DNA of 64,000 bases, taken from positions 2,880,001 through 2,944,000 of the forward strand of contig OX638340.1 in assembly GCA_951812955.1 (NCBI GenBank). Reading direction: 5' to 3'. Both the position numbers and the translations under genes were made by a program. The notes beneath the pieces are model-generated. The model ran no database searches, had not been told where the DNA came from, and saw only the letters and a program-made list of their open reading frames with translations. This document shows, piece after piece, positions 27,088 to 48,844 of this stretch. How positions within the stretch are numbered: position 1 is the stretch's first letter; every line of letters starts with the position of its first letter. This DNA is from an uncultured Gemmatimonadota bacterium (GTDB lineage Bacteria; JAAXHH01).

Positions 27088-28512
27088 ATGCATTATCTCA
27101 TATTGTTTGTGATTGCGTTCGCGCTATCCATGATGGGATGCGAAGGCAAGACAGGCCCCGCCGGCCCTACTGGTCAGCAGGGCGTGGCTGGTCCGCAGGG
27201 TGTTGCCGGGTCTACGGGATCTCAGGGATCTGCCGGTCCCCAGGGTCCTGAAGGTCCTCAAGGTCCCCAGGGCGATACCGGTCCCGCCGGTCCCCAGGGT
27301 CCTGAAGGTCCGCAGGGTTCCCAGGGCGATACCGGTCCCGCCGGCCCAGAGGGTCCCGCCGGTCCTCAGGGCGATACCGGTCCCGCCGGTCCAGAGGGTC
27401 CTGAAGGTCCGCAGGGCTCCCAGGGCGATACCGGTCCCGCCGGTCCTCAGGGACCTCCGGGCGAGGGCATAGACGCAGGTCAGGTGATCGACAGCGGCGT
27501 GCTGTCCGCCATTCATCACATCAAGTTGACCCAGGATGGAAACGCCAAGATGGTCGCCGTGTTCGACGCGCCTGATTTCGCGCTCAGAGCCGATCCGGGC
27601 AACAATCTGGATCTGACTATGGCCGTCGGTGAAACGACCACCATTGTCGCAAAGGCCGCCAGTCAGGACGGTGCGGTACTGGCCGTCGGTTTCGAATGGG
27701 AAACCAACTCTCAGGCCATTACGGTCGACGGCGGCACGATTACGGCAGTGGAACCGACCGCGGACGCCAAGATTACCCTCACGGCTGTTGGCAGGGGGGT
27801 GGAGATCGAGCTGGACGTCACGGTGCTCGACCTGATAAAGCGGATCGAGATCGCCATGCCGCACGCTTACGTTCTTCCAGTCGACGGTTCGGTCACGTTG
27901 TCGGCTACGGCCTACGATGCGACAAAGGGCGGAGATGAAATCGAAGGCGCCCAGATCATGTTCCTGAGTTCCGACACCAACGTGGTCAGCGTTGACGGCA
28001 ATACAATTACCGCCGAAGACGTGGGCACGGCCGAGGTCGTTGCCACGGGTGGCGGCGTCGACTCCAAGGATAAAGTCAAGATCACCGTCACCGGTACCGG
28101 CACGCTTCTGTATGCGATGCGATATACCAATATAGAAGCCGCCGCCCGTACCAGGGAACTGACAAAAGCCGATCCCGATGCCGTCGATGATGAGGGCAAT
28201 GCAGCTCCGATAACCCGGGAGGTGGATCCTGATACGAACATCGTTTTTCGAGTCCAGGTATTCGACATCGAGGCTGACGGTTCTCTGTCACTTACTTCTG
28301 ATACTCCGAATGTGACGGTCCGCAGCCAGCAGCCTGAGGTGGTAGCGATTCCCACTGACCAGAACTCGTTTGCTGTAGCCAATGGCATAGCGACAATTGC
28401 CATCCAGACCGGTGATACTTGGATCCTGGAACACGGGACGGCTTACCTGGTCGTTTCGTTGGACGGCGCCGAGGACATCGCTCTGCCCGGCATTATGATC
28501 GACGCACCCTGA
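27088..28512 (+). CDS. collagen-like (Gly-X-Y) repeat lipoprotein with bacterial Ig-like (Big_2-type) domains
   Basis: Signal peptide with lipobox (LSMMGC). About 36 uninterrupted GXY triplets ([16 protein letters not shown]...), then beta-rich repeats resembling Big_2 domains. Confidence 0.8.
27142..27468 (+). repeat. coding tandem repeat (collagen GXY tract with about 45-bp higher-order periodicity)
   Basis: Repeated ggtcccgccggtcc(c/a)cagggtcctgaaggtccgcagggttcccagggcgatacc units. Confidence 0.8.
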
Positions 28513-28832: not shown

Positions 28833-29588
28833 TTATTTCGTCCTGGACTCCTTCCCCTCGTTCCCGTACTTCTCCAGACTCATCTCACCTTCGCGCAACA
28901 CGCCATATGTACCGTGCTGGATCCAGTCGCCCAGATTGATGTATACCTTCTCGCCCTTACAATCGAGCGTCGGACAGTGGTTGTGCCCGAACACTACCAT
29001 GTCGTAGCCTTCGTCGAGCAGTGAGAAAGCCAGGTCCTGGTAGGCTTGACGCGGATTCCACGAGGCGGGTTTTCTGTGGCGCCTGCTCAGCCGCGATGCC
29101 AGGCGGCCGATCGTGAAACCCCAATCCGGATGGATCATCTGAAACAGTCGGATGCTTATCGCGCTGTGCATGATCTTCGAAAGCGCGCGGTACCCGCGAT
29201 CGCTGGTAATCATGCCGTGGCCATGGGCGACATAGATCCTCCGTCCGTGGTGGGTCACGGTCAGCGGACCTTCCGCCGTTTCCACCCCGACCTGTTCGTC
29301 CAGAAAGGTTCCCAGCCAGAAATCGTGATTGCCCGGAAGGTATACGACCCGCGTGCCGTGCTCCACCAGCGAGCTCAGTGCGTGCAGCACCGTGTAGTGC
29401 TGGCGAGGCACGACGCTTCGGTATTCGAACCAGAAATCGAATAGATCACCGACGATGTACAATTGCCGGGCATCGCCCCTGAGGCTATGCAGGAAGGCCA
29501 GCAGACGCGCTCTTCTGCCTTCTTCTGCCGCATAATCTTCGATCCCCAGGTGGGCATCGGAAATGAAGTAGACGGGACCTTCCATCAT
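28833..29588 (-). CDS. LpxH-like metallophosphoesterase (UDP-2,3-diacylglucosamine hydrolase family)
   Basis: ISDAHLG, IVGDLFDFW, LPGNHD, HGHGM and FGHNH blocks match the LpxH pattern. The start is at MMEGPVYF, not the longer ORF. Confidence 0.7.
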   Translation of the reverse strand: MMEGPVYFISDAHLGIEDYAAEEGRRARLLAFLHSLRGDARQLYIVGDLFDFWFEYRSVVPRQHYTVLHALSSLVEHGTRVVYLPGNHDFWLGTFLDEQVGVETAEGPLTVTHHGRRIYVAHGHGMITSDRGYRALSKIMHSAISIRLFQMIHPDWGFTIGRLASRLSRRHRKPASWNPRQAYQDLAFSLLDEGYDMVVFGHNHCPTLDCKGEKVYINLGDWIQHGTYGVLREGEMSLEKYGNEGKESRTK

Positions 29589-29656
29589 GGACGATATAAG
29601 ACCCGAATAATGCCGGGATCCGGAGGGTTTCCCGGGCATCCAGTTGAGACAACTTT

Positions 29657-29688
29657 GAATTGACAATTCGCCTTTAGCACGTTAATTA
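29657..29688 (+). promoter_or_regulatory. candidate blaI promoter (TTGACA-N17-TAATTA) overlapping a perfect 6-1-6 palindrome GAATTGaCAATTC (putative BlaI-family operator)
   Basis: Seen directly in the AT-rich divergent region between the LpxH-like gene and blaI. Confidence 0.35.
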
Positions 29689-29757
29689 AGATACATTGGG
29701 CCATATATTTAACTACCAAAAACTTAGACATGCCTCCCGCAGATTCGACGCGCGGGC

Positions 29758-30177
29758 ATGGTGAATTCGGAGATGGACCGGATGGCCAGGAAGAAGCTGT
29801 CTTCGTTGACGGACCTGGAAATCGACATCATGAATGTCGTCTGGCGGCTGGGACGGGCGACGGTGCGCCAGATCGTCGATTCGCTTCGGGATCAGCGTCC
29901 CCTGGCGTACACGACAGTGCAGACGGTCCTGTCAATACTCACTCAGAAGGGCGTGGTTCAGTATACCCGCGAAGGCCGGGCCTATGTCTACACCGCCATC
30001 GTAAAGCCGGAAGGCGTGCGCAAGGAGACCGTCAGGGCCGTCGTGGACAAGTTGTTCGCCGGATCGCCGCAGTCCCTCGTGCTTCACCTGATCGAATCGG
30101 ACGCGTTAACCGCGGAGGAAGCCGAAAGCCTGCGCAAGCTGCTGGACCGGATGGCCTCGGAGGCGTCTGATGATTGA
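29758..30177 (+). CDS. BlaI/MecI/CopY-family transcriptional repressor
   Basis: Winged-helix N-terminus (LEIDIMNVVWRLGRATVRQIVD...YTTVQTVLSILTQKGVV) and a dimerisation C-terminus. The start could be at 29773 or 29782. Confidence 0.8.
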   Translation: MVNSEMDRMARKKLSSLTDLEIDIMNVVWRLGRATVRQIVDSLRDQRPLAYTTVQTVLSILTQKGVVQYTREGRAYVYTAIVKPEGVRKETVRAVVDKLFAGSPQSLVLHLIESDALTAEEAESLRKLLDRMASEASDD

Positions 30178-32056
30178 CCCGGGGTACGCGATAAACCTCT
30201 TCGAGCGGTTCGGCCGGCAGGTCGTGGACCTTCTGTGGCTGCCGAGCCTGGAAGCGTTGCTTCTGGGCGTTCTGGTCTGGGTCCTGCTTTTCGTAAACCG
30301 GGGATGTTCGCCCGGGATCAGGCATTTCCTCTGGTTGCTGGTGCTGGCAAAACCGCTGCTCACCCTTGTGTTGCCCTGGCAGGGACCTTTCGAGATCCCG
30401 TTGGCGTCGATAGCAGGATATGGAGATCCCGCCGCGGGCAATCATATCTTCCTGGCTTCCAGCATTTACGCCGCCGCGGGCTTGATCTGGATGGTCTTCG
30501 CAGGTTTCGGCCTGTACCGCATCGGTTCCTCGGTCATCACGATGACCCGCAGAAAGCGCAGGGCCGTTCCGGTCGCCGTCCCCCGGATACGCGCCTTGTT
30601 CGACGAATGTCTGGCCGAATTGGGACTGAAGCGCGGCGTGGCCTTGCGGGTCTCGGACGAGTTCGAAGGCCCCGCGTTGATCGCCGTGGGGCGGCCCGTA
30701 ATCGTGATCCCCTCCTGGTGCATCCTGGAGCTTTCCAACTCGGAACTCAAGCAGGTTCTGCTCCATGAACTGACGCATTATGCCCGGCGGGACCACCTCA
30801 CGGTAGTGCTGGTAGAATTCACCAGGATCTTCTTCTTCTTCCATCCGGCGGTCTGGTATGCCGCGCGCCGAGTAGGGATTGAGGCCGAACGGGCCTGCGA
30901 CGTGGCCGTCGTCCGTGTTTCCAAACATCCGGAACGCTATGCTTCTATCCTGCTCAAGGTTGCCGGAAGCAAGGTCAGGACGCACTGGCAGGCGGTCCTC
31001 GAACTGGCCAGGTCGGCCTCCGTCGTTGCCATACGTATCCGGGGCGTGCTCGGTTCGGCGGTGAACCGGAAGGGCAGCACCTTCTTCTCGTTGCTGGCCG
31101 CCGGTATATGCACGGTGTTCGCGGTCACGCCCATTTTGCGGCCGACGGTCCATGCCCCCGCCGACATGCCCGTGCCGGCGTGGACTAGCACACCCGACGA
31201 ACAGTCGATCCCCGGCCGGATCGATACGACTCCGGTCAGGCCGAGCCATGACGCCGTGGTAACCGGCGGGTCGAAATCGCTGGTCGAGCACGATCCGGCC
31301 CCGTCCGTCCGTGAAGAGACTCCCAGGATCATGGTCGATGGCCGGCCTTTGCAGCGTAGATCCATGGCCGACCTGATGGTTGATCGTAGCGTCCGGTATG
31401 CAGGCGTGGCCTACGCACCTGTGGGTAGCCAGAGAATAAACCCCGCCGTGCTCGGTCATTCAGCCGCCGCGAGGCTGCCGGACAGATCCCCAGCGCTGGG
31501 GAGCAAGCTCGGACCTGGACGTATCGAGGTGCAGGGTGTGGGTCAGACCGGGAACGCGTTGTTCGATCCGACCACGGTCTCCCTGAGCGCCGGTTATTTC
31601 CTTACATCCACCCACCAGTTCGGCGGCGTGTTTTCCATCCGGCGGCCGAACGATGCCGAATCGCTTGACGACACCTCGCGGTCCCCGGTTTCTTCGTATG
31701 ACGGCACCCCGCTTCGAGCCCGGAAACTGGCCGGGTACGGGACCACGGCGGTGCACGGGACGGTGCTTGAAACCCAGGAGGAAGAGCAGGCCGACCGGAT
31801 AACCCGGATCGGAGCCTTCTATCGGTACAACCCACTCGTTCCGGGTGGTTCCTTCACGCCTTTCTTCGGCTGGGGCACCGGACTGGAGATCAGGCCTCAG
31901 AACCGGTATATGGCCATGATCGACGCCGGGGTTGGACTGCGTTACTTCTGGGAACGGCACGTCGCCGTGATCGTGCAGGCTTCCTACCGAAAGGAGCTCG
32001 ATGTCACCTCGCGACCTTTCCCGGAGATGACGCTGGGCTTCTCAGCGATCTTCTAG
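30170..32056 (+). CDS. BlaR1/MecR1-family M56 peptidase sensor with a non-PBP beta-rich C-terminal domain
   Basis: Four N-terminal TM segments plus the HELTHYARRDH zinc motif. The C-terminal ~300 aa lack transpeptidase/SxxK motifs, are rich in alternating beta-strand patterns and end in ...LGFSAIF. Start overlaps the blaI stop. Confidence 0.7.
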   Translation: MIDPGYAINLFERFGRQVVDLLWLPSLEALLLGVLVWVLLFVNRGCSPGIRHFLWLLVLAKPLLTLVLPWQGPFEIPLASIAGYGDPAAGNHIFLASSIYAAAGLIWMVFAGFGLYRIGSSVITMTRRKRRAVPVAVPRIRALFDECLAELGLKRGVALRVSDEFEGPALIAVGRPVIVIPSWCILELSNSELKQVLLHELTHYARRDHLTVVLVEFTRIFFFFHPAVWYAARRVGIEAERACDVAVVRVSKHPERYASILLKVAGSKVRTHWQAVLELARSASVVAIRIRGVLGSAVNRKGSTFFSLLAAGICTVFAVTPILRPTVHAPADMPVPAWTSTPDEQSIPGRIDTTPVRPSHDAVVTGGSKSLVEHDPAPSVREETPRIMVDGRPLQRRSMADLMVDRSVRYAGVAYAPVGSQRINPAVLGHSAAARLPDRSPALGSKLGPGRIEVQGVGQTGNALFDPTTVSLSAGYFLTSTHQFGGVFSIRRPNDAESLDDTSRSPVSSYDGTPLRARKLAGYGTTAVHGTVLETQEEEQADRITRIGAFYRYNPLVPGGSFTPFFGWGTGLEIRPQNRYMAMIDAGVGLRYFWERHVAVIVQASYRKELDVTSRPFPEMTLGFSAIF

Positions 32057-32096: not shown

Positions 32097-33548
32097 ATGG
32101 ATCACCATATGAACAGAGCGGCCTCGGCGCTGATTATCGCCGGCGGCGCGGGCGTGCGCCTTCAAACGGTAACCGGCCAGGTTCCCAAACCCTTGATGAA
32201 GCTTTGCGGCGTGCCACTGATCAAGCGGATCATTTTGACAGCGGCCAGGGCCGGCATTTCGCGTTTCGTGATCGTAACGGGGTACCAGGCGGACCTCTTT
32301 CACGAGGTCCTTTCGGACGATCCCGGCCTGGACGGCTGCCGGATCGAGTGGGTGCATAACGAGCGGTGGCACCTGCCCAACGGGGTTTCCGCCCTGGCCG
32401 CCCGTTCCCGCCTGGCGGAACCGTTCGCGCTGCTCATGGCGGATCACCTCTTCGAGCAAAGTACGTTGGAGCGTCTGCTCGAGGAACCGGTCGCCGATGG
32501 GGAATGTCTGCTCGCCGTCGACCGGAAAATCGATAGCGTGTACGACCTGGACGACGCCACCAAGGTCGAGGTGCGCGGGGACGAAGTTGTTCGCATCGAT
32601 AAAGCGCTGCAGGAGTTCAATGCGGTAGACACGGGCATGTTCCTTTGTACGCCGGCACTGTTCGATGCCCTCGATGCCGTGGACGGACCGGAGGGGTGCG
32701 CGTTGAGCGACGGCGTCCGGGCGCTGGCGGAAGACGGGAGGATACACGCCTTCGACGTCGGCGATGGATTCTGGCAGGACGTGGATACGCCCGAAATGCT
32801 GGCGCACGGCGAAAAGAACCTCCTGGAGCGCCTAGTAAAGCCCACGGATGGCTGGATCGCCCGGTACTTGAACCGGCCGGTTTCGACCCGTCTCAGCCGA
32901 TGGCTGGTCCGGACGCCGATCACCCCCAACATGGTGACCCTGGTCACCTTCCTGACCGGCCTGGCCGGAGCGTGGTTCGTGATGGGCGGCACGTACTGGA
33001 CGGTACTTCTTGGCGCCTTTCTTTTCCAGGTTTCGTCCATCCTCGATGGATGCGACGGGGAGGTGGCGGTCCTGACCTTCCGCGAGTCGAAATACGGTTC
33101 ATGGCTCGACACGATCACGGACAACCTGACCTACCTGGCGTTTTTCTCCGCCGTTGTCTGGGCCTATGCGGGCGGTTCCGACGTAACGGCAATCCGGTAC
33201 CTCGGCCTGGTATCCGTCGCCGTGGTGACCGCGTCGATTCTCGCGATGTACTACTACCTGATGCAGACCGGGGGAAGCGGAAGTCTCGTAAGGTTCAACC
33301 GCGCCTTCGAAAGACACGCCGTCGGGCGGCGCCGCAACCTCTCCGCCAGGCTGCTCAATCTGTTTCGGATGATGTGCAAAAGGGATTTCTTTACCTTGTT
33401 GTTGCTGGTTTTTGCCGCAATCGGACTCCTGAACTGGATGTTCTGGACCGTAACGGCCGGCGGCCTGGCCATGGGTCTGGCCATATTCATTTCGACGGGG
33501 CGGCTGTTGGCGCGGGACCGGGCGGTTGAGCAGATGGAGCGCTCATGA
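32097..33548 (+). CDS. bifunctional nucleotidyltransferase / CDP-alcohol phosphotransferase (IPCT/DIPPS-like)
   Basis: N-terminal sugar/polyol-phosphate nucleotidyltransferase motif (IIAGGAGVRL...PKPLMKL). C-terminal CDP-OH P-transferase motif DGCDGEVAVLTFRESKYGSWLDTITDNLT in a polytopic membrane domain. Confidence 0.7.
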   Translation: MDHHMNRAASALIIAGGAGVRLQTVTGQVPKPLMKLCGVPLIKRIILTAARAGISRFVIVTGYQADLFHEVLSDDPGLDGCRIEWVHNERWHLPNGVSALAARSRLAEPFALLMADHLFEQSTLERLLEEPVADGECLLAVDRKIDSVYDLDDATKVEVRGDEVVRIDKALQEFNAVDTGMFLCTPALFDALDAVDGPEGCALSDGVRALAEDGRIHAFDVGDGFWQDVDTPEMLAHGEKNLLERLVKPTDGWIARYLNRPVSTRLSRWLVRTPITPNMVTLVTFLTGLAGAWFVMGGTYWTVLLGAFLFQVSSILDGCDGEVAVLTFRESKYGSWLDTITDNLTYLAFFSAVVWAYAGGSDVTAIRYLGLVSVAVVTASILAMYYYLMQTGGSGSLVRFNRAFERHAVGRRRNLSARLLNLFRMMCKRDFFTLLLLVFAAIGLLNWMFWTVTAGGLAMGLAIFISTGRLLARDRAVEQMERS

Positions 33549-34318
33549 GCGGATTACTGTACCATGTACGGGGACTTTTTACCCTCCGGATCAGGAAGGA
33601 TCTCAACTTCCGCAGGGTCCAGGAAACGGTCCCGGCGCTGCGCTGGCTGAAGCCGCGCAGGGGCGAGCGGATTCTCGATATAGGCTGCGGAGAAGGGACC
33701 TATGATTACCGGGTCGCCATGCGAGGCGCCGAGGTATTCGGTTTAGATTTGAACCGGCACCAATTGCGGCGTGCCGCGTCCTATCACAAGACCCCTTCGA
33801 CGGGATTCTTCTGTGCCGATGCGGGCGCGTTCCCCGTTCGCTCGGGACAGTTCGACACGGTCATGAGCCTGTGCGTCTTCGAGCACCTGCCGGACGACCG
33901 ACAGACGCTGAGGGAGATGTGGCGCGTATTGCGGCCCGGGGGACGCATCCTGTTGACGCTGGACAGTCTGAGCCTCGGGGGGATCGGCGAGGCGTGGCGC
34001 GACGAGCACCGGGAACGTCACAGCGTCCTTCAATTCTATTCGCATCCGTCGGTCGGCTCGTTGCTGGAGGCGTGTGGGTTCAGACTGATAAGACACCGCT
34101 ACCTGCTTCGTTCGAAGCTGGACCTGGCGCTGATCCGGTTGAGCTATGCTACCGAGCGCATGCACGCGATCCCGGCGGCGCTGGTCCGATTGGGGCTGGT
34201 ATCGATCGGCCGGGCAGTGTCTGCGGTTTTTAACCTGTTCACGAAAAACCACGGGGGATGGACGCTGTTGATCGAAGCAGACAGGAAGACCCCCCGTCCG
34301 GCGAATTCCCCACCATGA
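33545..34318 (+). CDS. class I SAM-dependent methyltransferase
   Basis: ILDIGCGEGTY motif I and LRPGGRILLT. ATGA overlap with the upstream gene. Confidence 0.7.
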   Translation: MSGLLYHVRGLFTLRIRKDLNFRRVQETVPALRWLKPRRGERILDIGCGEGTYDYRVAMRGAEVFGLDLNRHQLRRAASYHKTPSTGFFCADAGAFPVRSGQFDTVMSLCVFEHLPDDRQTLREMWRVLRPGGRILLTLDSLSLGGIGEAWRDEHRERHSVLQFYSHPSVGSLLEACGFRLIRHRYLLRSKLDLALIRLSYATERMHAIPAALVRLGLVSIGRAVSAVFNLFTKNHGGWTLLIEADRKTPRPANSPP

Positions 34319-35868
34319 AGCGTACCCTTGAGCAAACGGTTCCGGACCGGTCCGACACCGACGCATCGGCGATCGCCCGGGGCGCGGCCGTCAATTTCAT
34401 CGGAACGGTGGCGCGGCTTACCAAGTCCGTGTCGTTCATCGTCCTTACGCGGCTGTTCGGCGCCGAGATTTTCGGCCTGTACATGCTCGGATGGACCATC
34501 GTGGATCTCGTGGGAAAGGTGGCCCAGTTCTCGTTGGACAAGGGCTTGATCAATTTCATCCCGCGTATGCGCGAGGACGGGAAGAAGGACGCCATCCACC
34601 GAATCATCGCGCAGGCCCTGGGCGTGGGCCTGCTGCTGAGCGTTGGGGTCGGCGCCGCGCTATATGTCGGCGCGCCCGCGCTGGCCGAAGGGCTGCTCGA
34701 AAAGCCACGGCTCACCGGCATGCTGCGGTTGTTGGCGATCGGACTGCCGCTAATCGCCCTGACCCACATCATTTTGGGCGTCACCCGGGCTCACAAAGTC
34801 ATGAAGTACGACGCCATGGTCCGGGGCGCGGTCGAGCCGCTGGTGCTATTCGGGGCGGCCTGCGCCTTGTTCTACTGGGGCTGGCGCACCTACGGCATCG
34901 CCGCGGCCCACCTGGCCGCGCTGACCGGCGGCCTGCTGTTCGCCGTTTACGTGTTCACCAGGTTCTATTCCTGGCGTGCCTGTCTCGTCCACCTGCGCGA
35001 ACTGCGTTTCGTCACTCCGCTGACCCGATTCTCGCTGCCGGTAATGGGCTATGAACTGGTCTACATGGCCATGATACGTCTTGACGTGCTCATGGTCGGC
35101 TACTTCCTGCCGGCGGCGCAGGTGGGCATCTACGTGATCGCGGTCGAAATCGCCTTGCTGACCAAGAAGGTCCGCCAGTGGTTCGACCCGATTTTCAGTC
35201 CCATCGTCGCCGAACTGAATCACCGCAACGACCTGCCGCGGCTGGAGCGCAACCTCAGGCTGGTCACCCGGTGGGTCCTGACCATCGGCGTGGGGTTCCT
35301 CTGCGTCATAGCACTGATCGGCAATGAATTGCTGGGGCTGTTCGGTCCGGCATTCGTCACCGGGTTCATGGCGATGGTCGTCCTGGCCATGAGCCAGGTC
35401 GTATATGCCGCCATGGGTTCTGGCGATACCGTGCTCATCATGTCGGGCCGGCCCTATCTGAATCTCATCAACACGGTCGTGGTCGTAGCAGTGAATTTCG
35501 CCCTGAACCTGTGGCTGATACCATCCCTGGGCATCCTGGGCGCCGCCCTGGGAACGCTGGTATCCTTCGGCCTGCTGACACTAACGCGCCTGGTCGAGGT
35601 ATACCACCTGTTCCGGATCCATCCCCTGGACTGGCGCATTTTGAAGCCCTGCGCCGCAGCGGTCGTCGCCTTCGCATGCGCGTACATGGCGGGGGCCTAC
35701 GCGCCTGATGCCCCGTGGTTGCGCATGGCCGCGCTGCCTCTGATTTTCCTGGCCCCCTATCTCGGTGTGCTGTTCCTGATGGGTTTGGAAGAGGATGACC
35801 GGATCGTGCTCCGGCGCCTGCGGGGGCGGTGGGCACGAAGACGTGGGCACCGAGCTTCAGCGCCATGA
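34315..35868 (+). CDS. MOP-superfamily flippase (Wzx/polysaccharide-biosynthesis-protein type)
   Basis: About 500-aa protein with 12-14 predicted TM helices and Wzx-like N-terminal blocks. Start MKRTLEQ overlaps the upstream stop. Confidence 0.6.
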   Translation: MKRTLEQTVPDRSDTDASAIARGAAVNFIGTVARLTKSVSFIVLTRLFGAEIFGLYMLGWTIVDLVGKVAQFSLDKGLINFIPRMREDGKKDAIHRIIAQALGVGLLLSVGVGAALYVGAPALAEGLLEKPRLTGMLRLLAIGLPLIALTHIILGVTRAHKVMKYDAMVRGAVEPLVLFGAACALFYWGWRTYGIAAAHLAALTGGLLFAVYVFTRFYSWRACLVHLRELRFVTPLTRFSLPVMGYELVYMAMIRLDVLMVGYFLPAAQVGIYVIAVEIALLTKKVRQWFDPIFSPIVAELNHRNDLPRLERNLRLVTRWVLTIGVGFLCVIALIGNELLGLFGPAFVTGFMAMVVLAMSQVVYAAMGSGDTVLIMSGRPYLNLINTVVVVAVNFALNLWLIPSLGILGAALGTLVSFGLLTLTRLVEVYHLFRIHPLDWRILKPCAAAVVAFACAYMAGAYAPDAPWLRMAALPLIFLAPYLGVLFLMGLEEDDRIVLRRLRGRWARRRGHRASAP

Positions 35869-35940
35869 CGTTAGTGGTCCGGCGCCTGCGGGGCCTGTGC
35901 GGCCCGCCGCCTCTACCCGGTAAGAGGCCAAGCGCAAGCC

Positions 35941-37284
35941 GTGGGATGGAGGGGAGCGCGTACTTGGGACATCTGTCGACGGGGAGACTTGGTTATTTTG
36001 AATTACAGCGTGGTATTGTTCGCCGATACGGATGACATCACAGCCGGCGCCGGTCGATCGGTTTACGGCATTTCTCTGTTGGAACGGCACCTTCGGGTCT
36101 TTGCTTCCCTGGGGGCCCGGCGGGTAACCGTGGTCGGACCTGCACCCGGCCGGGGTTCGAAGGTCCGAGTCGACGGATTCGACGAACGCTGGTTCGCTGA
36201 GCTGCGCGCCGTCGACTGCGTGGGGGCCGAAGAAAGCCCTGCCCGCTGGCTGCCCGGGAAGGACGAAGTGGCCCTGGTGCTGGACGCCCACCACCTGTAT
36301 GACCCGCGTGTCCTGCGGGCCATGGTCGAAGGCGGCCCGAACCGTAAAGCCGCGGACTCGGCAGTCAGGGAATCCTGCAGGCTGCTGGTGGCCGACGCAG
36401 ACCTGCTCGCAAGCCTCACAGCGTGCTGGAACGGCTCCGAATCACTATGGTCATCGCTGGACTCGGCGCGGGAATCGACCTGCCCGGTATTCGATCTCCG
36501 CGAAATGGACCCCTATATCGTGGATCTGCGCCGAAGCCTGCCCCCCTGGTGGGTGGTCCTGGGTTCGGACCGGAAAGCGCGCCGGGCGGAGGCGCTTCTG
36601 ATCAATGCCGCACAGAAGGGAACGCTGGATTTTCCGGCGGAATTCATACATCCACCCCTGGAGAACCTGCTTACAAAGTGGATCTCGGCCGGAACCGTGA
36701 CGCCTAACCAGGTAACCACCCTCACCATATTGCTGGCCTTCCTGACCACCGGCCTGCTGGCCGTGGGGCAATCGGGCCCGGGTTACACGGCCGCCGGACT
36801 GATCATCGCCTTCATCGTCGGAGTACTGGACGGGGTCGACGGCAAGTTGGCCCGTGTTACGGTGCGATGCACGCGGTTCGGGGACCGATTTGAACACATC
36901 CTGGACGTGATCTGGGAGCTGACCTGGTACTGGGCCCTGGGGTGGATGCTCGGCGGCAGTGGCGATGTGGCGGGGCCTTTCGTGCTCGCTTCGGTAATCA
37001 CGCTCTTTTATCTGCTTGACAAGACGGCCACGGGGATGTTCAAGTCACGGCAGGGAATCGAACTGTTTGACTACGAGCCCATGGATCGCTTTTTTCGCCG
37101 TATCGGCGCCCGGCGCAACACGAACGTCCTGCTGCTGCTGGGTGGTACGGCGGCAGGTATGCTGGAGGAAGCGTTTACATGCGTGGCCATCTGGACGGTG
37201 ATTACGGCGGCGTTTCACTGGACGCGGGCGATCTGGGTGCTGTCGAAGCCGACATCGGCCGGCGATGTGAAACGGCTTCCTTAA
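35941..37284 (+). CDS. second CDP-alcohol phosphotransferase with divergent N-terminal nucleotidyltransferase-like domain
   Basis: DGVDGKLARVTVRCTRFGDRFEHILD motif in the membrane domain. The N-terminal ~230 aa resemble an NTP-transferase fold (LFADTDDITAGAGRS) but lack the canonical G-x-G-x-R...K residues. Confidence 0.6.
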   Translation: MGWRGARTWDICRRGDLVILNYSVVLFADTDDITAGAGRSVYGISLLERHLRVFASLGARRVTVVGPAPGRGSKVRVDGFDERWFAELRAVDCVGAEESPARWLPGKDEVALVLDAHHLYDPRVLRAMVEGGPNRKAADSAVRESCRLLVADADLLASLTACWNGSESLWSSLDSARESTCPVFDLREMDPYIVDLRRSLPPWWVVLGSDRKARRAEALLINAAQKGTLDFPAEFIHPPLENLLTKWISAGTVTPNQVTTLTILLAFLTTGLLAVGQSGPGYTAAGLIIAFIVGVLDGVDGKLARVTVRCTRFGDRFEHILDVIWELTWYWALGWMLGGSGDVAGPFVLASVITLFYLLDKTATGMFKSRQGIELFDYEPMDRFFRRIGARRNTNVLLLLGGTAAGMLEEAFTCVAIWTVITAAFHWTRAIWVLSKPTSAGDVKRLP

Positions 37285-37426
37285 CGCCAGCCACGATTTC
37301 TCCCGGGCATGGGCCGGCCCATGCCCGTTAATTTGGATCAAAAAGTGGAATTGTGCGTCTAATATGCTTGATAATGAGCGAGTCGGCCATGGCTGTGCGT
37401 CGACGCTTGTGCTAAGCGGAGGCATC

Positions 37427-38803
37427 GTGTTTCGTTTCCTGGTCCACATCCTGGCGGTATCTCTGATCACGGGGCCGGCGGTCGCACAGGGATCGGACCG
37501 TCCCGTACAGGCCGTCCAATCCGTCCGGATGACGCTGGAGCAGTGCGTGGACAGGGCGTTGACGGTCAGTCCTGATATCGAGCAGGCGGCCCTTGCCGTC
37601 GAAGGCCTGGAAGCCAGGTTGAGCGAAGCGAAATTTGCGGGCATCGCACCCCGGTTGCAGTGGACCAACATCTTCGGTCCGGCGCCCGGCATAAAAGGCG
37701 ATACAGAACGGGTCGAGACCATCCGGAGCGACCTGTCCGACCTGGGCGTTTTTTCCCGCACGCAGATCGAATTGGTCCAGCCGCTGTATACCTTCGGGAA
37801 GCTCAGCAATGCGAAGAAGGCGGCCGGATACGGTCTCGAGGCGGGCGAGGCCGCCGTGGAATCCAGGAAGCACGACGTGGCCTTCCAGGTTAAGAAACTG
37901 TTCTACGGACTCGTGTTGGCCCGTGAACTCAGGGAAATCATTCTGGAAAGCGAAGAAAGCGTACGTGAAGCCCGGGAGCGCGTCAACGAGATGATCGAGG
38001 AGGATTCGGAAGATGTCGGCCAGAACGACCTGTTGAAAATCGATGTCTTCGAGTATGAAGTGCAACAGAGCCGGGCGCGGGCCGAGAAGTCGATCGAAAT
38101 AGGGAAGGCGGCGCTGAAATCGGTGCTTGAAATCGATCGCTCCAGCGATTTCGATATCGTCGACACGACCGCGGAACCCAGTACGGCAGACCTCGACGGA
38201 CTGGAATTCTACATCGAACAGGCGAAGAACCGGCGGTACGACATCCGGCAGCTCAGGGCCGGCGTGCTGGCCCGCCGCGCGCTGCTGAAGGTAGCCCGGA
38301 GCGACTACTACCCCCAGATCGCCCTTGCGGGGTCCATCCAGTGGGGTATCGCGCCCCACCGGCCGGAACTCGACAATCCGTTCCTCAGGGACGAGTTCAA
38401 TTTCCTGCGGGGGGGCGCGGTGATTACCTTGCGGCAGAACTTCAATTTCGGCCTGACCCGCGCGAAGTACCAGGCCAGGAAAGTGGAGCTGGAAGCGCTG
38501 GTGACCAGGGAATCACAGGCGATGAACGCGATCGAACTGCAGGTGGAATCGACCTACCGGGACGTGATCGAGGCCCGTACCAACGTCGTCAACAGCGACC
38601 GGGCGCTTCGCTCCGCCAGGGCATGGCTGACATCGGCAAAGCTGGGCTTCGACATCACGGGAGACAGTTCGGAATTGCTGGACGCCTTCACCGCGCACGC
38701 GAAAATGCAACATGCACACCGGCAGTCGCTTTTCCAGTACCGGGTTTCGCTGGCCGAACTCGATCACGTAACCGGTAACGGGATTTCAAATGTGCGGCGC
38801 TGA
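37427..38803 (+). CDS. TolC-like outer-membrane efflux protein (OMF family)
   Basis: Signal peptide after a GTG start (GGAGG-N5-GTG). Paired coiled-coil/beta-barrel repeats typical of OMF proteins. Confidence 0.7.
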   Translation: MFRFLVHILAVSLITGPAVAQGSDRPVQAVQSVRMTLEQCVDRALTVSPDIEQAALAVEGLEARLSEAKFAGIAPRLQWTNIFGPAPGIKGDTERVETIRSDLSDLGVFSRTQIELVQPLYTFGKLSNAKKAAGYGLEAGEAAVESRKHDVAFQVKKLFYGLVLARELREIILESEESVREARERVNEMIEEDSEDVGQNDLLKIDVFEYEVQQSRARAEKSIEIGKAALKSVLEIDRSSDFDIVDTTAEPSTADLDGLEFYIEQAKNRRYDIRQLRAGVLARRALLKVARSDYYPQIALAGSIQWGIAPHRPELDNPFLRDEFNFLRGGAVITLRQNFNFGLTRAKYQARKVELEALVTRESQAMNAIELQVESTYRDVIEARTNVVNSDRALRSARAWLTSAKLGFDITGDSSELLDAFTAHAKMQHAHRQSLFQYRVSLAELDHVTGNGISNVRR

Positions 38804-38824
38804 CACACGGAACGGAGGATGGTC

Positions 38825-39655
38825 ATGAAGAATCGACGTGCGGGGGCGGGCAGGACGCTCAGTCTGGTGGCTGGCACCGTCCTGTTGCTCATTGCCACGT
38901 TCATCGATCCGTCTTCCGTCCTTCGCACGGACTCAGCGGATAAAGGAACGCCGCCCCGATTTTCCGTGCTGGGGATCGACTCTTTTGTTCCGGCAGCCGC
39001 GCGGGCGGATCATCCTCAACGCCGCGATGATCGTCGTGCGTCCGTCCTCATCGATGGCTTCGACAGTTCGGCCCCGGGCAGCTTCCCCCTGACCTGGAAG
39101 GCCTGGCGGGGAGACGATGACCTGGCTCGAAAAACGTATACGATCCGGGAGGAAAACGGAAACCGGTATCTCCACGCCGCCGACGACGGCTCATCCATCA
39201 TCATTCGCAAGCAGCTTAGCGAATGGGATGCGAACGAATACCCGGTGCTGTCATGGCGCTGGAGGGCGAAGGTCCTGCCCGAAGACGGAGATGAACGCAT
39301 CGGTTCCAGGAACGACAGTTCAGTGGCCGTGTACGTGGTCCTGGATCAGAACTTCATCGGCGTGCCCAAAACCCTGAAGTACGTCTGGAGTACCACCCTG
39401 CCGGTCGGCACCCATCACCGCCGCGACGGTATTGGCCGTCCCCACGTGATCGTGCTCGAAAGCGGTACGGAGAAGCTCGGGGAATGGGTCAAGGAGTCGG
39501 TCGACGTGTATGCGGACTATGTCCGGATCTTCGGGAAAAAGCCGCCCCGGAAAGCCGTAGGGATCGGTATTCTTACGGATGGCAACGCGACGGGAACGGA
39601 CTCGAAGGGGGATTACGACGACTTCATGGTTCATCGCCGGAACACCGGGTCCTGA
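38825..39655 (+). CDS. DUF3047-family protein (secreted)
   Basis: Signal peptide plus DUF3047-like blocks (WKAWRGD...YLHA...SSVAVYVV). Confidence 0.5.
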   Translation: MKNRRAGAGRTLSLVAGTVLLLIATFIDPSSVLRTDSADKGTPPRFSVLGIDSFVPAAARADHPQRRDDRRASVLIDGFDSSAPGSFPLTWKAWRGDDDLARKTYTIREENGNRYLHAADDGSSIIIRKQLSEWDANEYPVLSWRWRAKVLPEDGDERIGSRNDSSVAVYVVLDQNFIGVPKTLKYVWSTTLPVGTHHRRDGIGRPHVIVLESGTEKLGEWVKESVDVYADYVRIFGKKPPRKAVGIGILTDGNATGTDSKGDYDDFMVHRRNTGS

Positions 39656-39690
39656 CCCGTCAATTCCGGCCGGAAGGTAGGAGGAAGAAA

Positions 39691-40290
39691 ATGCATGCTA
39701 TTTGCCGCGCACTCCGCCCCTTGGGACCACTTGTCGCCTGGGCGGCGGTGTCGTTGATCGCTTTCGGGAGTAACGCGCAGGAATACTCGCCCATCGAGAC
39801 CCTGAAACAGCGGGACGCCGCGTTACTCGGCCTGGATGGAGCCACCACCGAAGCGGCACGGGACAGTCTCGTGCGCCGGGCCGTCGTCGAGGGGTTCGAT
39901 TTCGTACGACACAGCCGTATCTCGCTCGGCAGGCACTGGCGGGAGAGGACGGACGCGGAACAAGAAGAATTCGTTTCGGTCCTGCGTAAGTGGACGGAAA
40001 ACCGGGCCCTCGACAAGTTGCGCAAGCGGTCGGACAGGACGACTTATGACGGAGAGGAGACCCGGGGCAGCAGGTCGCTGGTGAGAACCACGGTATGGTA
40101 CAAGGGTACCAAAACACTCGTCGACTACAAGATGGAGTTGCAGGAAGGGCACTGGCTCATTTACGACATGGTCATCGACGGGGCGAGCGTCGCGCTGGCC
40201 AACCGGGACGCATTCTACAAGAAGATCAGCAGGACCTCCTACGACGAATTGCTCGATACCCTACTCGCAAAAACCCTTGAAATAGAGTAG
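39691..40290 (+). CDS. MlaC/Ttg2D-family periplasmic phospholipid-binding protein
   Basis: Block-by-block match to MlaC (FDFVRHSRISLGRHWRERTDAEQEEF ... VDYKMELQEGHWLIYDMVIDGASVALANRDAF). GGAGGA RBS precedes the ATG at 39691. Confidence 0.8.
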   Translation: MHAICRALRPLGPLVAWAAVSLIAFGSNAQEYSPIETLKQRDAALLGLDGATTEAARDSLVRRAVVEGFDFVRHSRISLGRHWRERTDAEQEEFVSVLRKWTENRALDKLRKRSDRTTYDGEETRGSRSLVRTTVWYKGTKTLVDYKMELQEGHWLIYDMVIDGASVALANRDAFYKKISRTSYDELLDTLLAKTLEIE

Positions 40291-40370
40291 TATTTCTTGT
40301 ATATTTCCGGGTCTGTGAGATATACTCGTTTCAAGCGGTATATTCATGTCCTAAGTTTTTAGGAGACAGA

Positions 40371-41813
40371 ATGGCGAAGACGGTATACGACCGGTGTATC
40401 TTTTTCCTCGTCGACGGCGCCCGCGAAGACGTCATGCGGGAAATGACCGAGGCGGGCGAACTGCCTGCCCTGCGGCGCTACGTGCTGGACAGGGGAGACT
40501 ACCGAAAGGCGGTGACTTCGTTTCCGTCCACGACCGGTCCGGCCCATGTGCCCTTTCTGACCGGTTGTACGCCCGGTTCGTGCAATCTCCCCGGAATCCG
40601 CTGGTTCGACCGGTCCCAGCCCAATGGTCTCACCCATTTCCGCCAGGCGCGCAGTTACGTGGGTCCGGGAGGCCTGTATATCGACCAGGACCTCAAGGAT
40701 GAAGTCCACACCATCTTCGAGTACTTCGAGCGCCCGGCGGGGGTCTTCAGTTTTGTGAACAGGGGATTGGGCATATTCGAAAACCGGACGCTGCTGACCA
40801 GGGGCTGGTACTGGCTATACGCCCATTACTCCGGCCAGTGGCAGGCCGTGGACGACGCGGCCTGGCGGTACATCGACCGGGCCGTTGACCAGGGCGCCGA
40901 TTTCCTGTCGGTCGTATTCCCCGCGGTGGACGAATACTCGCATTACACCGATCCATTTTCGGACGCCACGTTGAACGCGTACCGGGAATTCGACCGGGGG
41001 CTCGGCAGGTTGGCGGAGCGGCTTCAACGGCAGGACAGACTGGACAGTACGCTTTTCGTGATCTCCAGCGATCATGGCCTGACCTCTACGCACACGCACT
41101 TCGAACTTTGGTCGTTTTTTGACGAATTGGGATTCAACACGCTGTATTATCCCCGGATCCTGCGCAACGGATGCGACGCGGCAACTATGGTCTCGGGCAA
41201 CGGCATGGCGCATATCTACCTCAAGAAAGGCGACTCCTGGGAAGAAAGGCCTTCCTACGAGGAGATCCGCACGCTGGGGGAAACGGACCCGATCGAAGCC
41301 CTGCTGGGGCAGGAGGCGATCGACCTTGTGGCGGCGGTCCAGGATGACTCGGTCATCGTCTGCGGGCGCCGGGGGATCAGTGAAATTAGGGAGACGCCCG
41401 AAGGCATCGCGTACCGGGTTATTGAGGGCCAGGATCCGTTCGGCTATGGAGGCATCCCGGCTGAAGCGTCCGATGAGCAATTGCTCTCCGCCACGTTCGA
41501 CACGGACTATCCCGACGCGCCTTACCAATTGCTGCGTGTCCTCGGTTCTCCGCGGTCGGGCGATTTGATCGTCAGTGCGCGAAAAGGCTACGATCTGAGA
41601 TACCGGTACGAGCATCCTGAGCACAAGTCGACCCATGGTTCACTGCATCGCGACCATATGCACGTTCCCTTGATGATGAATACGGAGATTGCGGCGGACC
41701 ACGTGCGCACCGTGGACCTCTTCCCCGCCATGCTGAACCTGACGGGGCGTTTGGTCGAAGGAACTATTGACGGCAGAGATTCTGTCACCGCCGCTTCGCG
41801 TGCGGTGGCGTAG
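40371..41813 (+). CDS. type I phosphodiesterase / nucleotide pyrophosphatase (NPP, alkaline-phosphatase superfamily)
   Basis: FPSTTGPAHVPFLTG metal/nucleophile-Thr motif and further NPP-like blocks (SSDHG). AGGAGA RBS. Confidence 0.7.
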   Translation: MAKTVYDRCIFFLVDGAREDVMREMTEAGELPALRRYVLDRGDYRKAVTSFPSTTGPAHVPFLTGCTPGSCNLPGIRWFDRSQPNGLTHFRQARSYVGPGGLYIDQDLKDEVHTIFEYFERPAGVFSFVNRGLGIFENRTLLTRGWYWLYAHYSGQWQAVDDAAWRYIDRAVDQGADFLSVVFPAVDEYSHYTDPFSDATLNAYREFDRGLGRLAERLQRQDRLDSTLFVISSDHGLTSTHTHFELWSFFDELGFNTLYYPRILRNGCDAATMVSGNGMAHIYLKKGDSWEERPSYEEIRTLGETDPIEALLGQEAIDLVAAVQDDSVIVCGRRGISEIRETPEGIAYRVIEGQDPFGYGGIPAEASDEQLLSATFDTDYPDAPYQLLRVLGSPRSGDLIVSARKGYDLRYRYEHPEHKSTHGSLHRDHMHVPLMMNTEIAADHVRTVDLFPAMLNLTGRLVEGTIDGRDSVTAASRAVA

Positions 41814-41822
41814 GAGTAATCC

Positions 41823-42914
41823 ATGTCCGAGCAGGTCCAGATTGCCCCGGCGCCGGAACCTGTCCCGCCGTCTCCCGCGCTGCCCGTACTGCAACCGGAC
41901 TCGGGCTATCTCGGGTACGACCGGGCGCTGTTGCGGCCCATGTCCCTCGGCACTAAGCTCCGAGCCTTGTTCAAGTACCTCTGGGTACGATTGAAGGGCG
42001 GACCGATGGCGGTGAACATGGAGGTGACCTATCTGTGCAACGCCACCTGCGATTTCTGTGATTACTGGAAGACGAAACGTTCAGGCAAGCTGGGCGATTA
42101 CGACTACATGGAGGCGCTCAGGAAGCTGAACCCCCTGACGGTCACGCTGACCGGCGGGGAACCCATGATCAACAAGCGACTGCCCGAGGCGGTCAGACGC
42201 ATCAAGGATGGCCTGGGATTCGTTTATATCGGCATGGTCACCCACGGATCTCTGCTGACCGTAGAAAAGGCCATGGCCCTGTGGGATGCCGGCGTGGACC
42301 ACATTTCGATCTCGTTGAACTATATCGGCCGCGAACATGACGAGGAACGGGGTATCGCGGGTTTGTACGAGCATATCTCCACGCTCGTTCCCCAGCTGAC
42401 GGCCCGAGGGGTCAACGTGATCTTCAACACGGTGATCATGCGTGAGAACCTGGACCACGTCGTACCCATCGCGCACCTGGCGCGTTCTATGGGCGCGAAG
42501 GTTTCCTACAGTTGCTACAGCGACTACAAGAATGGGAACGAAACCCACCTTGTGGATCCCGGTCACGAGGAGCAGTTGGAATCCGTGATCGAGGATCTGA
42601 TCTACCAGAAATCCCGATTGGGAAACATCGTCAATTCCGCCTGGTACTTGCGCCGGATCCCCGATTACTTCCAGGATGCGCTTCCAAGGTCCTGCACGGC
42701 AGCGGGCAAGTGGCTGGTGCAACTGACTCCCGACGGCAACGTAAAACCCTGTGCGGAACTGCCCGTAATGTCCGGGTATGCCGATTTCAAGCGGGTTTCA
42801 ACGAAGATCGACTGCAACCGGTGCTGGTACAGTTGCCGGGGTGAGACCGAATCTTCGTTGAAGCTTGTAAGGGTGCTGGAAGGCCTGGGCAGGGCCTGGC
42901 GCAGTAGCGCTTAA
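41823..42914 (+). CDS. radical SAM enzyme with C-terminal SPASM/twitch-like Cys cluster
   Basis: CNATCDFCDYW (CxxxCxxC) plus C-terminal Cys-rich CAELPV...CNRCWYSCRGE. AGGAG RBS. Confidence 0.75.
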   Translation: MSEQVQIAPAPEPVPPSPALPVLQPDSGYLGYDRALLRPMSLGTKLRALFKYLWVRLKGGPMAVNMEVTYLCNATCDFCDYWKTKRSGKLGDYDYMEALRKLNPLTVTLTGGEPMINKRLPEAVRRIKDGLGFVYIGMVTHGSLLTVEKAMALWDAGVDHISISLNYIGREHDEERGIAGLYEHISTLVPQLTARGVNVIFNTVIMRENLDHVVPIAHLARSMGAKVSYSCYSDYKNGNETHLVDPGHEEQLESVIEDLIYQKSRLGNIVNSAWYLRRIPDYFQDALPRSCTAAGKWLVQLTPDGNVKPCAELPVMSGYADFKRVSTKIDCNRCWYSCRGETESSLKLVRVLEGLGRAWRSSA

Positions 42915-48613: not shown

Positions 48614-48844
48614 GGGAATCAAGCCGGATTCAGCGGGTCGTTGGATCAGGGCGAACGGCGGCGGCACAGCAAGCGAAAGATGCTATACGGGTGTTTAGAA
48701 ATCAAGGTATTTTCAAGGTGGACCGTGAATGGCGGAAAAGACGCTTGTTCTATGCCGTTACCGGAGTTAACGTGGTGTCGGCCGGTCCATCAGAATGCGG
48801 CGCGCCGGCCCGCCGCAGCCGATGTCGGAAACGGGACGATCATC

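Follow-up and report, generated by a model that had tools for sequence, protein, structure and literature searches.

A window of 64,000 nucleotides from an uncultured Gemmatimonadota bacterium (GenBank assembly GCA_951812955.1, contig OX638340.1, positions 2,880,001 to 2,944,000 of the forward strand) carries two overlapping genes, one for a repressor of the BlaI/MecI family and one for an M56 metalloprotease of 628 residues; all coordinates below are those of this window. The C-terminal domain of the protease is an outer-membrane-type, eight-stranded β-barrel borne on a disordered tether of ~120 residues, and not a periplasmic sensor fold. The pair is probably a proteolytic derepression module of the BlaI/BlaR1 type in which an outer-membrane protein (OMP) domain serves as the sensor. 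With the barrel placed on a disordered tether, the predicted mechanism becomes trans-envelope, and the 628-residue protein is predicted from its model to span both membranes, through four inner-membrane helices and an outer-membrane barrel. More tentatively, we put forward as a serious possibility that it represents a second, independent class of single-polypeptide trans-envelope transducers, in which a BlaR1-type protease is tethered to its own barrel as a reporter of outer-membrane integrity, of the β-barrel assembly machinery (BAM) or of a surface ligand, and controls an envelope-lipid operon by repressor cleavage. The domain identities, the fold and homology of the barrel, the catalytic residues, the synteny and the conservation of the promoter block were computed here.

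The repressor and the M56 protease

The pairing of a repressor and an M56 protease of the BlaI/BlaR1 type, first read from the letters alone, is real, as attested by Pfam scores, by an alignment with MecI and by a structural match with BlaR1. The repressor gene precedes the protease gene and overlaps it by 8 nt (ATGA-type), also as predicted. Its reading frame is open from 29758 (29758-30177), and the ATG kept across all relatives in the upstream alignment lies at 29782. Pfam analysis assigns the product to Penicillinase_R (PF03965; 8.3e-34, 116.8 bits for a cut-off of 22.6, profile positions 1-114 out of 115), a family combining a winged helix with a helical dimerisation domain, and the protein aligns end to end with MecI (1sd6), ungapped over 116 residues (E-value 7e-15). 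Repressor identity ranges from 66 to 99% across all 29 related loci retrieved. In BlaI and MecI, the scissile Asn-Phe bond, N101-F102, lies in the dimerisation domain. The residues aligned with this site are H102-L103 (...SLVLH/LIESD...), and not Asn-Phe; with the helix around it conserved, H102-L103 may still be cleaved. A metal repressor of the CopY type was considered and rejected: TIGR02698 is the best NCBIfam match, yet its 79.7 bits fall below the cut-off of 121.95, and the repressor contains no cysteine, so that the CxCxxxxCxC metal-binding motif of CopY/TcrY is missing.

The protease gene (30170-32056, + strand) encodes a protein in which Pfam reports Peptidase_M56 (PF05569; 3.5e-34, 118.8 bits for a cut-off of 31). 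The HELTH motif occupies residues 199-203 (30764-30778) and E240-R-A-C-D244 forms the ExxxD motif; an alignment of 33 homologues shows no variation at H199, E200, H203, E240 or D244. The M56 module is modelled by AlphaFold with a predicted local distance difference test (pLDDT) score of 75-88. Foldseek analysis of the full-length model returns as top hits the cryo-EM structures of Staphylococcus aureus BlaR1 (8exq, 8exp and 8exr; E-values 4e-7 to 2e-5), with a target-normalised TM-score of 0.75 for 8exr, and phmmer reports a match to BlaR1 at 1.1e-6. In the model, the zinc protease would sit after the third transmembrane helix (TM3) and before the fourth (TM4), on the cytoplasmic side, and the segment that follows TM4 would be extracytoplasmic according to the established topology of BlaR1 and the Foldseek match.

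The original prediction had described this C-terminal segment as devoid of penicillin-binding features, and the description holds. Residues 320-628 return no Pfam match, even at E≤10; the SxN and KTG motifs are absent from the C-terminal region; and the sole SxxK past TM4, at residue 605, falls within barrel strand 7 and looks like a chance occurrence. A transpeptidase or β-lactamase fold in the C-terminal domain would have pointed to an ordinary BlaR1, and no fold search of the protein returned one. The match to NCBIfam NF000326 (blaR1_generic) reaches 87.6 bits for a cut-off of 400 and is limited to the M56 part. An ordinary BlaR1 with a penicillin-binding protein (PBP) sensor can thus be set aside, as motifs, Pfam or NCBIfam support and fold are all missing, and because the sensor domain is not there the 628-residue protein is not a BlaR1/MecR1 sensu stricto.

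The C-terminal barrel and its tether

The C-terminus had been predicted to be β-rich over ~300 residues. Structure prediction of the region bears this out for the last ~180 residues (450-628), residues 327-449 being instead a disordered linker with a pLDDT of ~30. The linker is rich in Pro, Ala, Val, Ser and Arg, measures ~120 residues here and 121-162 among relatives, and is predicted to be long enough to span the periplasm. Its mean column identity is 0.45, compared with 0.75-0.78 for the barrel and 0.72 for the protease, and it holds two short conserved islands, MVDGRPxxRRSMA and INPAxLG.

The barrel-like fold ending in an aromatic residue, likewise anticipated, is recovered by AlphaFold as eight β-strands, with pLDDT values of 88-96 in the strands in a separate model of the domain built on a deeper alignment. 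These strands are antiparallel and amphipathic and close into a barrel, as in small OMPs: each is hydrophobic on one face (mean Kyte-Doolittle +0.8 to +2.2) and rich in Gly, Ser, Thr, Arg, Glu and Gln on the other. The C-terminus (...M-T-L-G-F-S-A-I-F) displays hydrophobic residues at -3, -5, -7 and -9, which is the pattern of the BAM β-signal, and an aromatic residue at its end; F628, I627, G623 and L622 are invariant in 33 sequences. The predicted periplasmic turns (4, 8 and 2 residues) and outer loops (9, 52, 5 and 7 residues) fit an OMP topology. The longest of these loops is an insertion between strands 3 and 4, missing in most standalone homologues, and contains an acidic run along with the conserved motif LRARKLAG. 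If we assume an OmpA-type topology with a periplasmic N-terminus, this insertion would be the extracellular loop L2, a candidate surface-sensing element.

Relatives of the barrel and other M56 fusions

An exhaustive HMMER search with the barrel profile over 1.84 billion representatives places the fused M56-barrel family in only six 50%-identity clusters. It also returns 18 weaker matches (E-values 5e-9 to 1e-3), all of them small (141-276 residues) except P0142 (1,083 residues). Most of these standalone relatives possess a typical N-terminal signal peptide and they mostly end with Phe; they share the motifs GYFLTxxHExGG and GFYRYN...PF. Seven out of 17 match Pfam OMP_b-brl (PF13505; best E-value 6.4e-13), and others touch OmpW, PagL or Autotransporter. 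The barrel profile finds nothing significant among Protein Data Bank sequences (best E-value 0.86). The comparison group is that of the small eight-stranded barrels (Pfam OMP_b-brl), namely the N-terminal domain of OmpA/OprF, OmpX/Ail, NspA, OmpW and PagL. Compared with the OmpA-type barrels, the present one has no cleavable signal peptide of its own, forms the C-terminal domain of an inner-membrane protein, and exhibits one very long loop.

Each of the ~72 full-length clusters retains the fusion, with identities as low as 37%, and no split version came to light. P0124, the sole barrel-only match, starts at profile position 32, within the barrel, and is apparently truncated. M56 cores are abundant among the weaker matches, fused to HEAT repeats, TonB_C, CarboxypepD_reg, DUF4097 or PDZ-S41 domains. 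These fusions are alike in using the M56 core as a chassis for extracytoplasmic domains and unlike the present protein in having no barrel: none of those retrieved or inspected carries an outer-membrane barrel, and none of the nine with unannotated C-termini (P0073, P0075, P0086, P0089, P0105, P0107, P0110, P0115 and P0118) finishes with an OMP-like barrel. Neither an M56 nor a BlaR protein bearing a barrel of this kind turned up in searches of the literature.

Comparison with known signalling systems

As in the BlaR1/BlaI and MecR1/MecI systems of S. aureus and Bacillus licheniformis, the repressor and M56 genes are adjacent and co-oriented, and the repressor is MecI-like. Like BlaR1, the protein combines a core of four TM helices with a HExxH/ExxxD gluzincin domain, and its sensor module follows TM4 on the extracytoplasmic side. 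It differs from BlaR1/MecR1 in that the class-D-β-lactamase-like or PBP sensor gives way to a disordered tether and an outer-membrane barrel. Further differences are the diderm host, the repressor gene coming first, and H-L instead of N-F at the cleavage site; the genes under control would be lipid and envelope genes, and not those of a β-lactamase or of PBP2a.

At its outer end, the closest likeness is with the Dma anti-sigma factors. In Dma1 of Bacteroides thetaiotaomicron, a single TM helix and a long stretch of disorder lie between an anti-sigma domain and an eight-stranded barrel; experiments have shown that Dma1 is a single polypeptide and that its C-terminal barrel occurs in outer-membrane vesicles (PMC10927553). 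The family is described as restricted to Bacteroidota (PMC10927553, PNAS 2024). As in Dma, a cytoplasmic transmitter is followed by inner-membrane helices, a long disordered periplasmic stretch and, at the C-terminus, an eight-stranded barrel, an arrangement that is here a prediction only. The proposed reading of the outer-membrane or surface state by the barrel, its relay to transcription by proteolysis, and the link with envelope remodelling would also be shared. Where Dma has an anti-sigma domain that holds an ECF21 sigma factor, the present transmitter is an M56 metalloprotease with a BlaI repressor as its putative substrate. The TM helices number four instead of one, the barrel has no OMP_b-brl_2 match, and the host lies outside Bacteroidota, in a lineage labelled Latescibacterota/Gemmatimonadota. 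No sigma factor gene is present among the neighbours in the window or in the related loci L001-L004. The M56-barrel protein lacks an anti-sigma domain, and its neighbourhood a sigma factor gene, which places it outside the Dma family; it is BlaR1/MecR1-like at its cytoplasmic end and Dma-like at its outer end.

Sensor-less BlaIR systems are represented by BlaR of Mycobacterium tuberculosis and Mycobacterium abscessus and by PvmSR of Pseudomonas aeruginosa (bioRxiv 10.64898/2026.08.03.742534). They share with the present pair an M56 protease and a BlaI-family regulator, the lack of a β-lactam sensor, and control over functions beyond β-lactam resistance. Unlike them, as they have no C-terminal domain, the M56-barrel protein bears a large and highly conserved replacement module.

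Alternative fates of the barrel

The alternative that we take most seriously, while considering it unlikely, is that the barrel is cut off after export and acts as an independent OMP of the lipid cluster encoded downstream, for instance as a channel for lipids or head-groups or as a partner of the Mla or OEP proteins. The fusion would then ensure co-expression or targeting, and the M56 core would be a sensor-less BlaR answering a membrane or cytoplasmic cue. Such sensor-less homologues do exist in M. tuberculosis, M. abscessus and P. aeruginosa (PvmS), Dma1 is found in vesicles as C-terminal fragments only, which indicates that tethers of this kind do get processed (PMC10927553), the two conserved linker islands could be processing sites, and the cluster encodes other outer-membrane and lipid-traffic proteins. 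However, the fusion has persisted in every full-length cluster with no split version, and the linker length is held within a range that fits spanning. Processing of the barrel and signalling are, besides, compatible with each other.

That the C-terminal domain is a soluble periplasmic eight-stranded barrel (avidin/lipocalin/YceI-like), binding a lipid or isoprenoid-like ligand as part of an ordinary inner-membrane sensor, is improbable. The strand faces rich in Gly, Ser, Thr, Arg and Glu are typical of the lumen of small OMPs, the terminal Phe is invariant, the homologues with signal peptides match OMP_b-brl, OmpW and PagL, and a 120-residue disordered tether would have no obvious role for an inner-membrane-bound domain. 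The earlier reading of the C-terminus amounted to such a periplasmic sensor domain, and is corrected here to an outer-membrane-type barrel.

Promoter region and candidate operator

The intergenic region upstream of the repressor gene (29591-29781) is 191 bp long and AT-rich (48% G+C, for ~61% in the window). Within its conserved regulatory block, the TTGACA core (29660-29665) of the dyad GAATTGaCAATTC is invariant in all loci compared, and the dyad arms are not. The hexamer TAATTA (29683-29688) occurs 17 nt past TTGACA in the close group, and distant loci exhibit TAAGTA, TATGAT or TATCTT after 16-17 nt. In this sigma-70-like layout, read by eye, TTGACA is the probable -35 box and TAATTA a possible -10 box. 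The assignment of TTGACA, the 17-nt spacer and TAATTA is made because they are conserved, which is its sole basis; a strict consensus sigma-70 promoter scan called no promoter in the intergenic region.

The dyad GAATTGaCAATTC had been taken for the operator of an autoregulated promoter. It is indeed perfect, unique in the window and superimposed on the invariant TTGACA of the probable -35 box, and many close relatives keep 5 of its 6 pairs; as an operator, however, it does not stand. Perfect 6+6 dyads with a spacer of 0-10 arise in 36% of dinucleotide shuffles of the 191-bp region, and in 11% with a spacer of at most 1, which puts the dyad at chance level. Only 3 of 27 related upstream regions retain a perfect GAATTGaCAATTC dyad, and no compensatory changes are seen. 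Pairing is down to 2-3 of 6 in five distant lineages in which the repressor is still 66-72% identical, and the right arm drifts freely (CAATAC, CATTTC, CAACGC, CATAAA, CTATTT). Further copies, which were to be looked for upstream of 32097 and elsewhere, do not occur within the window. Operators of characterised family members are built from TACA/TGTA half-sites, as in the cop box TACAnnTGTA. The dyad is unlike these half-sites, and no canonical box is present in 29591-29781, which contains one TACA and zero TGTA. The shuffles and the comparison of the 27 upstream regions speak against GAATTGaCAATTC as the operator, and autoregulation of the BlaI-like repressor through it is very improbable.

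The best comparative candidate for the repressor box is another dyad, CTACTA-N6-TAGTTG, which in relatives keeps its place relative to the conserved ATG (-70 to -106). Five distant lineages with four different spacers have it complete (12/12), 10 of the closer loci reach 10-11/12, and the window and one sub-group only 8/12. In three of the five distant lineages it overlaps the -35 box (TAGTTGACA). The variation of the type ACTAA...TTAGT / CGAA...TTCG at 29713-29730 might also be read as a hairpin in the 5' untranslated region. Where the same dyad overlaps the -35 box, in these three lineages, it would escape transcription, which favours a DNA site over such a hairpin.

A related site is located at 666-680 in another intergenic region (594-856), where CTACTA-CTG-TAGTTG contains both half-sites of the box exactly, with a spacer of 3 nt instead of 6. 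TTGACG (688-693) and TAGGTT come next, and an α/β-hydrolase open reading frame (ORF; 857-1798) lies downstream. The chance expectation for such a site in 64 kb is roughly estimated at ~0.08, and it could be a second regulon site or a coincidence. Elsewhere in the conserved block, 29679-29716 comprises two stretches nearly invariant in ~20 close relatives. One, GCGTTAATTAA(A/G)ATACA, includes a palindrome of 8 bp (TTAATTAA); the other is CATA(T/C)ATTTAACTA. In several loci, the hexamer ATACAT is directly repeated at a distance of 12 bp.

The downstream cluster

From blaI on, eleven ORFs follow each other on the + strand, separated, as called, by anything from a 172-nt overlap to a gap of +80 nt (-61 to +72 nt between the ORFs of the first part of the cluster), and a convergent gene closes the cluster at 42914. 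The terminator-like scan reports no site in the 40-nt gap after the M56 gene. It does report a hairpin within the 79-nt gap between the second CDP-alcohol phosphatidyltransferase gene and the OEP gene, a possible terminator or attenuator splitting the cluster. The gene order, including the divergent LpxH-like gene, is the same in L003 and L004, the M56-barrel proteins of which are 71% identical, and in L001 and L002 (37%), and blaI is immediately upstream in all 29 related loci. Because gene order and the position of blaI are conserved, there is strong comparative evidence that the pair and the downstream cluster constitute a functional unit, and the original proposal of such a link is well served by a synteny that extends down to 37% identity.

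The first enzyme of the cluster, the bifunctional NTP-transferase/CDP-alcohol phosphatidyltransferase (32097), resembles IPCT/DIPPS over its whole length (3e-70, under the equivalog cut-off). The combination of an NTP-transferase with a CDP-alcohol phosphatidyltransferase follows the Kennedy-type logic of head-group activation, and figures in a proposal for an alternative route to inositol lipids in bacteria (PMC9246714). Given the flippase, MlaC and OEP, the most economical reading is that the cluster product would be an envelope polar lipid. The second CDP-alcohol phosphatidyltransferase (35941-37284) exhibits an N-terminal region of ~200 residues without any family match, and its similarity to IPCT/DIPPS is confined to the C-terminal half (NCBIfam positions 201-409). 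A degenerate duplicate of the bifunctional enzyme at 32097 is one possible reading of this protein. The divergent metallophosphoesterase matches the NCBIfam UDP-2,3-diacylglucosamine diphosphatase model at 3.8e-27, under its curated cut-off.

Proposed mechanism

In the preferred reading of the pair as a derepression module with an OMP-type sensor, TM4 would act as a signal-anchor and the C-terminal part would be exported. BAM would insert the barrel in the outer membrane, resulting in a single polypeptide anchored in both membranes. The M56 domain would then receive a signal, for which a change at the outer membrane or surface (a ligand or damage at L2 or the barrel), failed barrel assembly, and altered inter-membrane distance or tether tension are candidates. 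Once activated, it would cleave the BlaI-like repressor, as BlaR1 does. Loss of the repressor would derepress the TTGACA promoter (29660) and with it blaI, the gene of the protease and no fewer than the four genes that follow. These four would provide CDP-alcohol (Kennedy-type) head-group synthesis, methylation and flipping, possibly together with the OEP, DUF3047, MlaC, phosphodiesterase and radical S-adenosylmethionine (SAM) proteins, so that the output would be a remodelling of envelope lipids. Inference extends to the insertion of the still-tethered barrel in the outer membrane, to what the signal is, to the cleavage of BlaI, and to the operator and the cluster product.

Several points weigh against this reading. 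AlphaFold cannot tell whether the barrel is inserted in a membrane or whether the tether stays intact, and the localisation is a prediction. The barrel has no direct Pfam match (E≤10) and does not itself match the PF13505 model, its link to OMP_b-brl being transitive; hhalign aligns the fused and free barrel sets with 99.7% probability, a value that is confirmatory and not independent, since the free set was picked with the same barrel profile and the comparison is partly circular. With H-L in place of N-F at the aligned site, repressor cleavage is putative and unproven. No operator is pinned down, and the best candidate box is degenerate in the window (8/12). The hairpin at 37304-37327 may uncouple the OEP-to-radical-SAM half and limit read-through to the first six genes. 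Lastly, the organism is known from metagenome-assembled genomes only, the hosts of the system are uncultured sponge-, coral- and marine-associated bacteria, and all that goes past domain identity and synteny is inference.

BlaR1-type receptors are understood almost only as Gram-positive β-lactam sensors, and the cues sensed by the many M56 proteins with other C-terminal modules are hardly known. Dual-membrane-anchored proteins of diderms, for their part, were experimentally reported only in 2024, with the Dma anti-sigma factors. With an M56 protease that bears an outer-membrane barrel of its own, the Dma principle would reach a further transmitter chemistry and a further lineage. If the module operates as proposed, dual-membrane signalling would be a solution reached by convergence and open to coupling with various cytoplasmic outputs, and not an anti-sigma oddity specific to Bacteroidota. 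It raises the questions of how BAM handles an inner-membrane-tethered substrate and of how information passes through a disordered periplasmic chain. The repressor, the protease-barrel protein and the promoter together form a compact, genetically tractable module, suited to asking whether lipid head-group synthesis and Mla-type trafficking answer directly to the state of the outer membrane.

Feature coordinates and neighbouring genes

Table 1. Features of the repressor/M56-barrel locus, with window coordinates.
Feature	Position	Strand	Remarks
LpxH-like metallophosphoesterase, divergent	28833-29590	-	Pfam Metallophos 1.3e-13; likely start ATGATG at 29585-29590, mechanical ORF to 29666
Conserved ~80-bp regulatory block	29650-29730	+	21 aligned upstream regions; flanks poorly conserved
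Dyad GAATTGaCAATTC	29657-29669	.	Perfect; single copy in the window
Candidate BlaI box CTACCA-AAAACT-TAGACA	29713-29730	+	8/12 positions of the consensus CTACTA-N6-TAGTTG
BlaI/MecI-family winged-helix repressor	29782-30177	+	131 residues from the conserved ATG; PF03965, MecI alignment
M56 module (residues 1-326)	30170-31147	+	Four TM helices, cytoplasmic gluzincin domain; PF05569, Foldseek
Disordered linker (residues 327-449)	31148-31516	+	pLDDT ~30, low column identity, variable length
Eight-stranded OmpA/OprF-like outer-membrane β-barrel (residues 450-628 and stop)	31517-32056	+	Ends with LGFSAIF, β-signal-like
Insertion between strands 3 and 4 (residues 492-543)	31643-31798	+	49-61 residues; low pLDDT
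Cluster, part 1	32097-37284	+	NTP-transferase/CDP-alcohol phosphatidyltransferase, SAM methyltransferase, MOP flippase, second CDP-alcohol phosphatidyltransferase (Pfam, NCBIfam)
GC-rich hairpin CGGGCATGGGCC/GGCCCATGCCCG	37304-37327	+	10 bp perfect, 8 GC; weak T-tail; terminator-like scan
Cluster, part 2	37364-42914	+	TolC-like OEP, DUF3047, MlaC, type-I phosphodiesterase (alkaline-phosphatase superfamily), radical SAM (Pfam)

The records of L005-L029, in which the proteins are 70-95% identical, bear phylum labels that differ (Gemmatimonadetes, Candidatus Latescibacterota, Zixibacteria, or simply "bacterium") and cannot all be right. Some isolate names among them (APA_bin, IRC1_bin, Plut_) seem to abbreviate sponge or coral hosts.

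Two further genes of the window were noted. The ORF that converges on the end of the cluster (42911-48667, - strand) encodes a protein of 1918 residues that is a tandem duplication of UvrA in one polypeptide, in which the UvrA_inter and UvrA_DNA-bind domains each occur twice and the set of ABC ATPase modules is complete and doubled. At 27088-28512 (+ strand), a protein of 474 residues comprises a lipoprotein-like signal (...LSMMGC), ~110 residues of collagen-like GPxG triplets and a non-repetitive C-terminal part; Pfam reports Collagen (3.8e-16), and the protein exhibits weak similarity with the SclB/Lcl adhesins.

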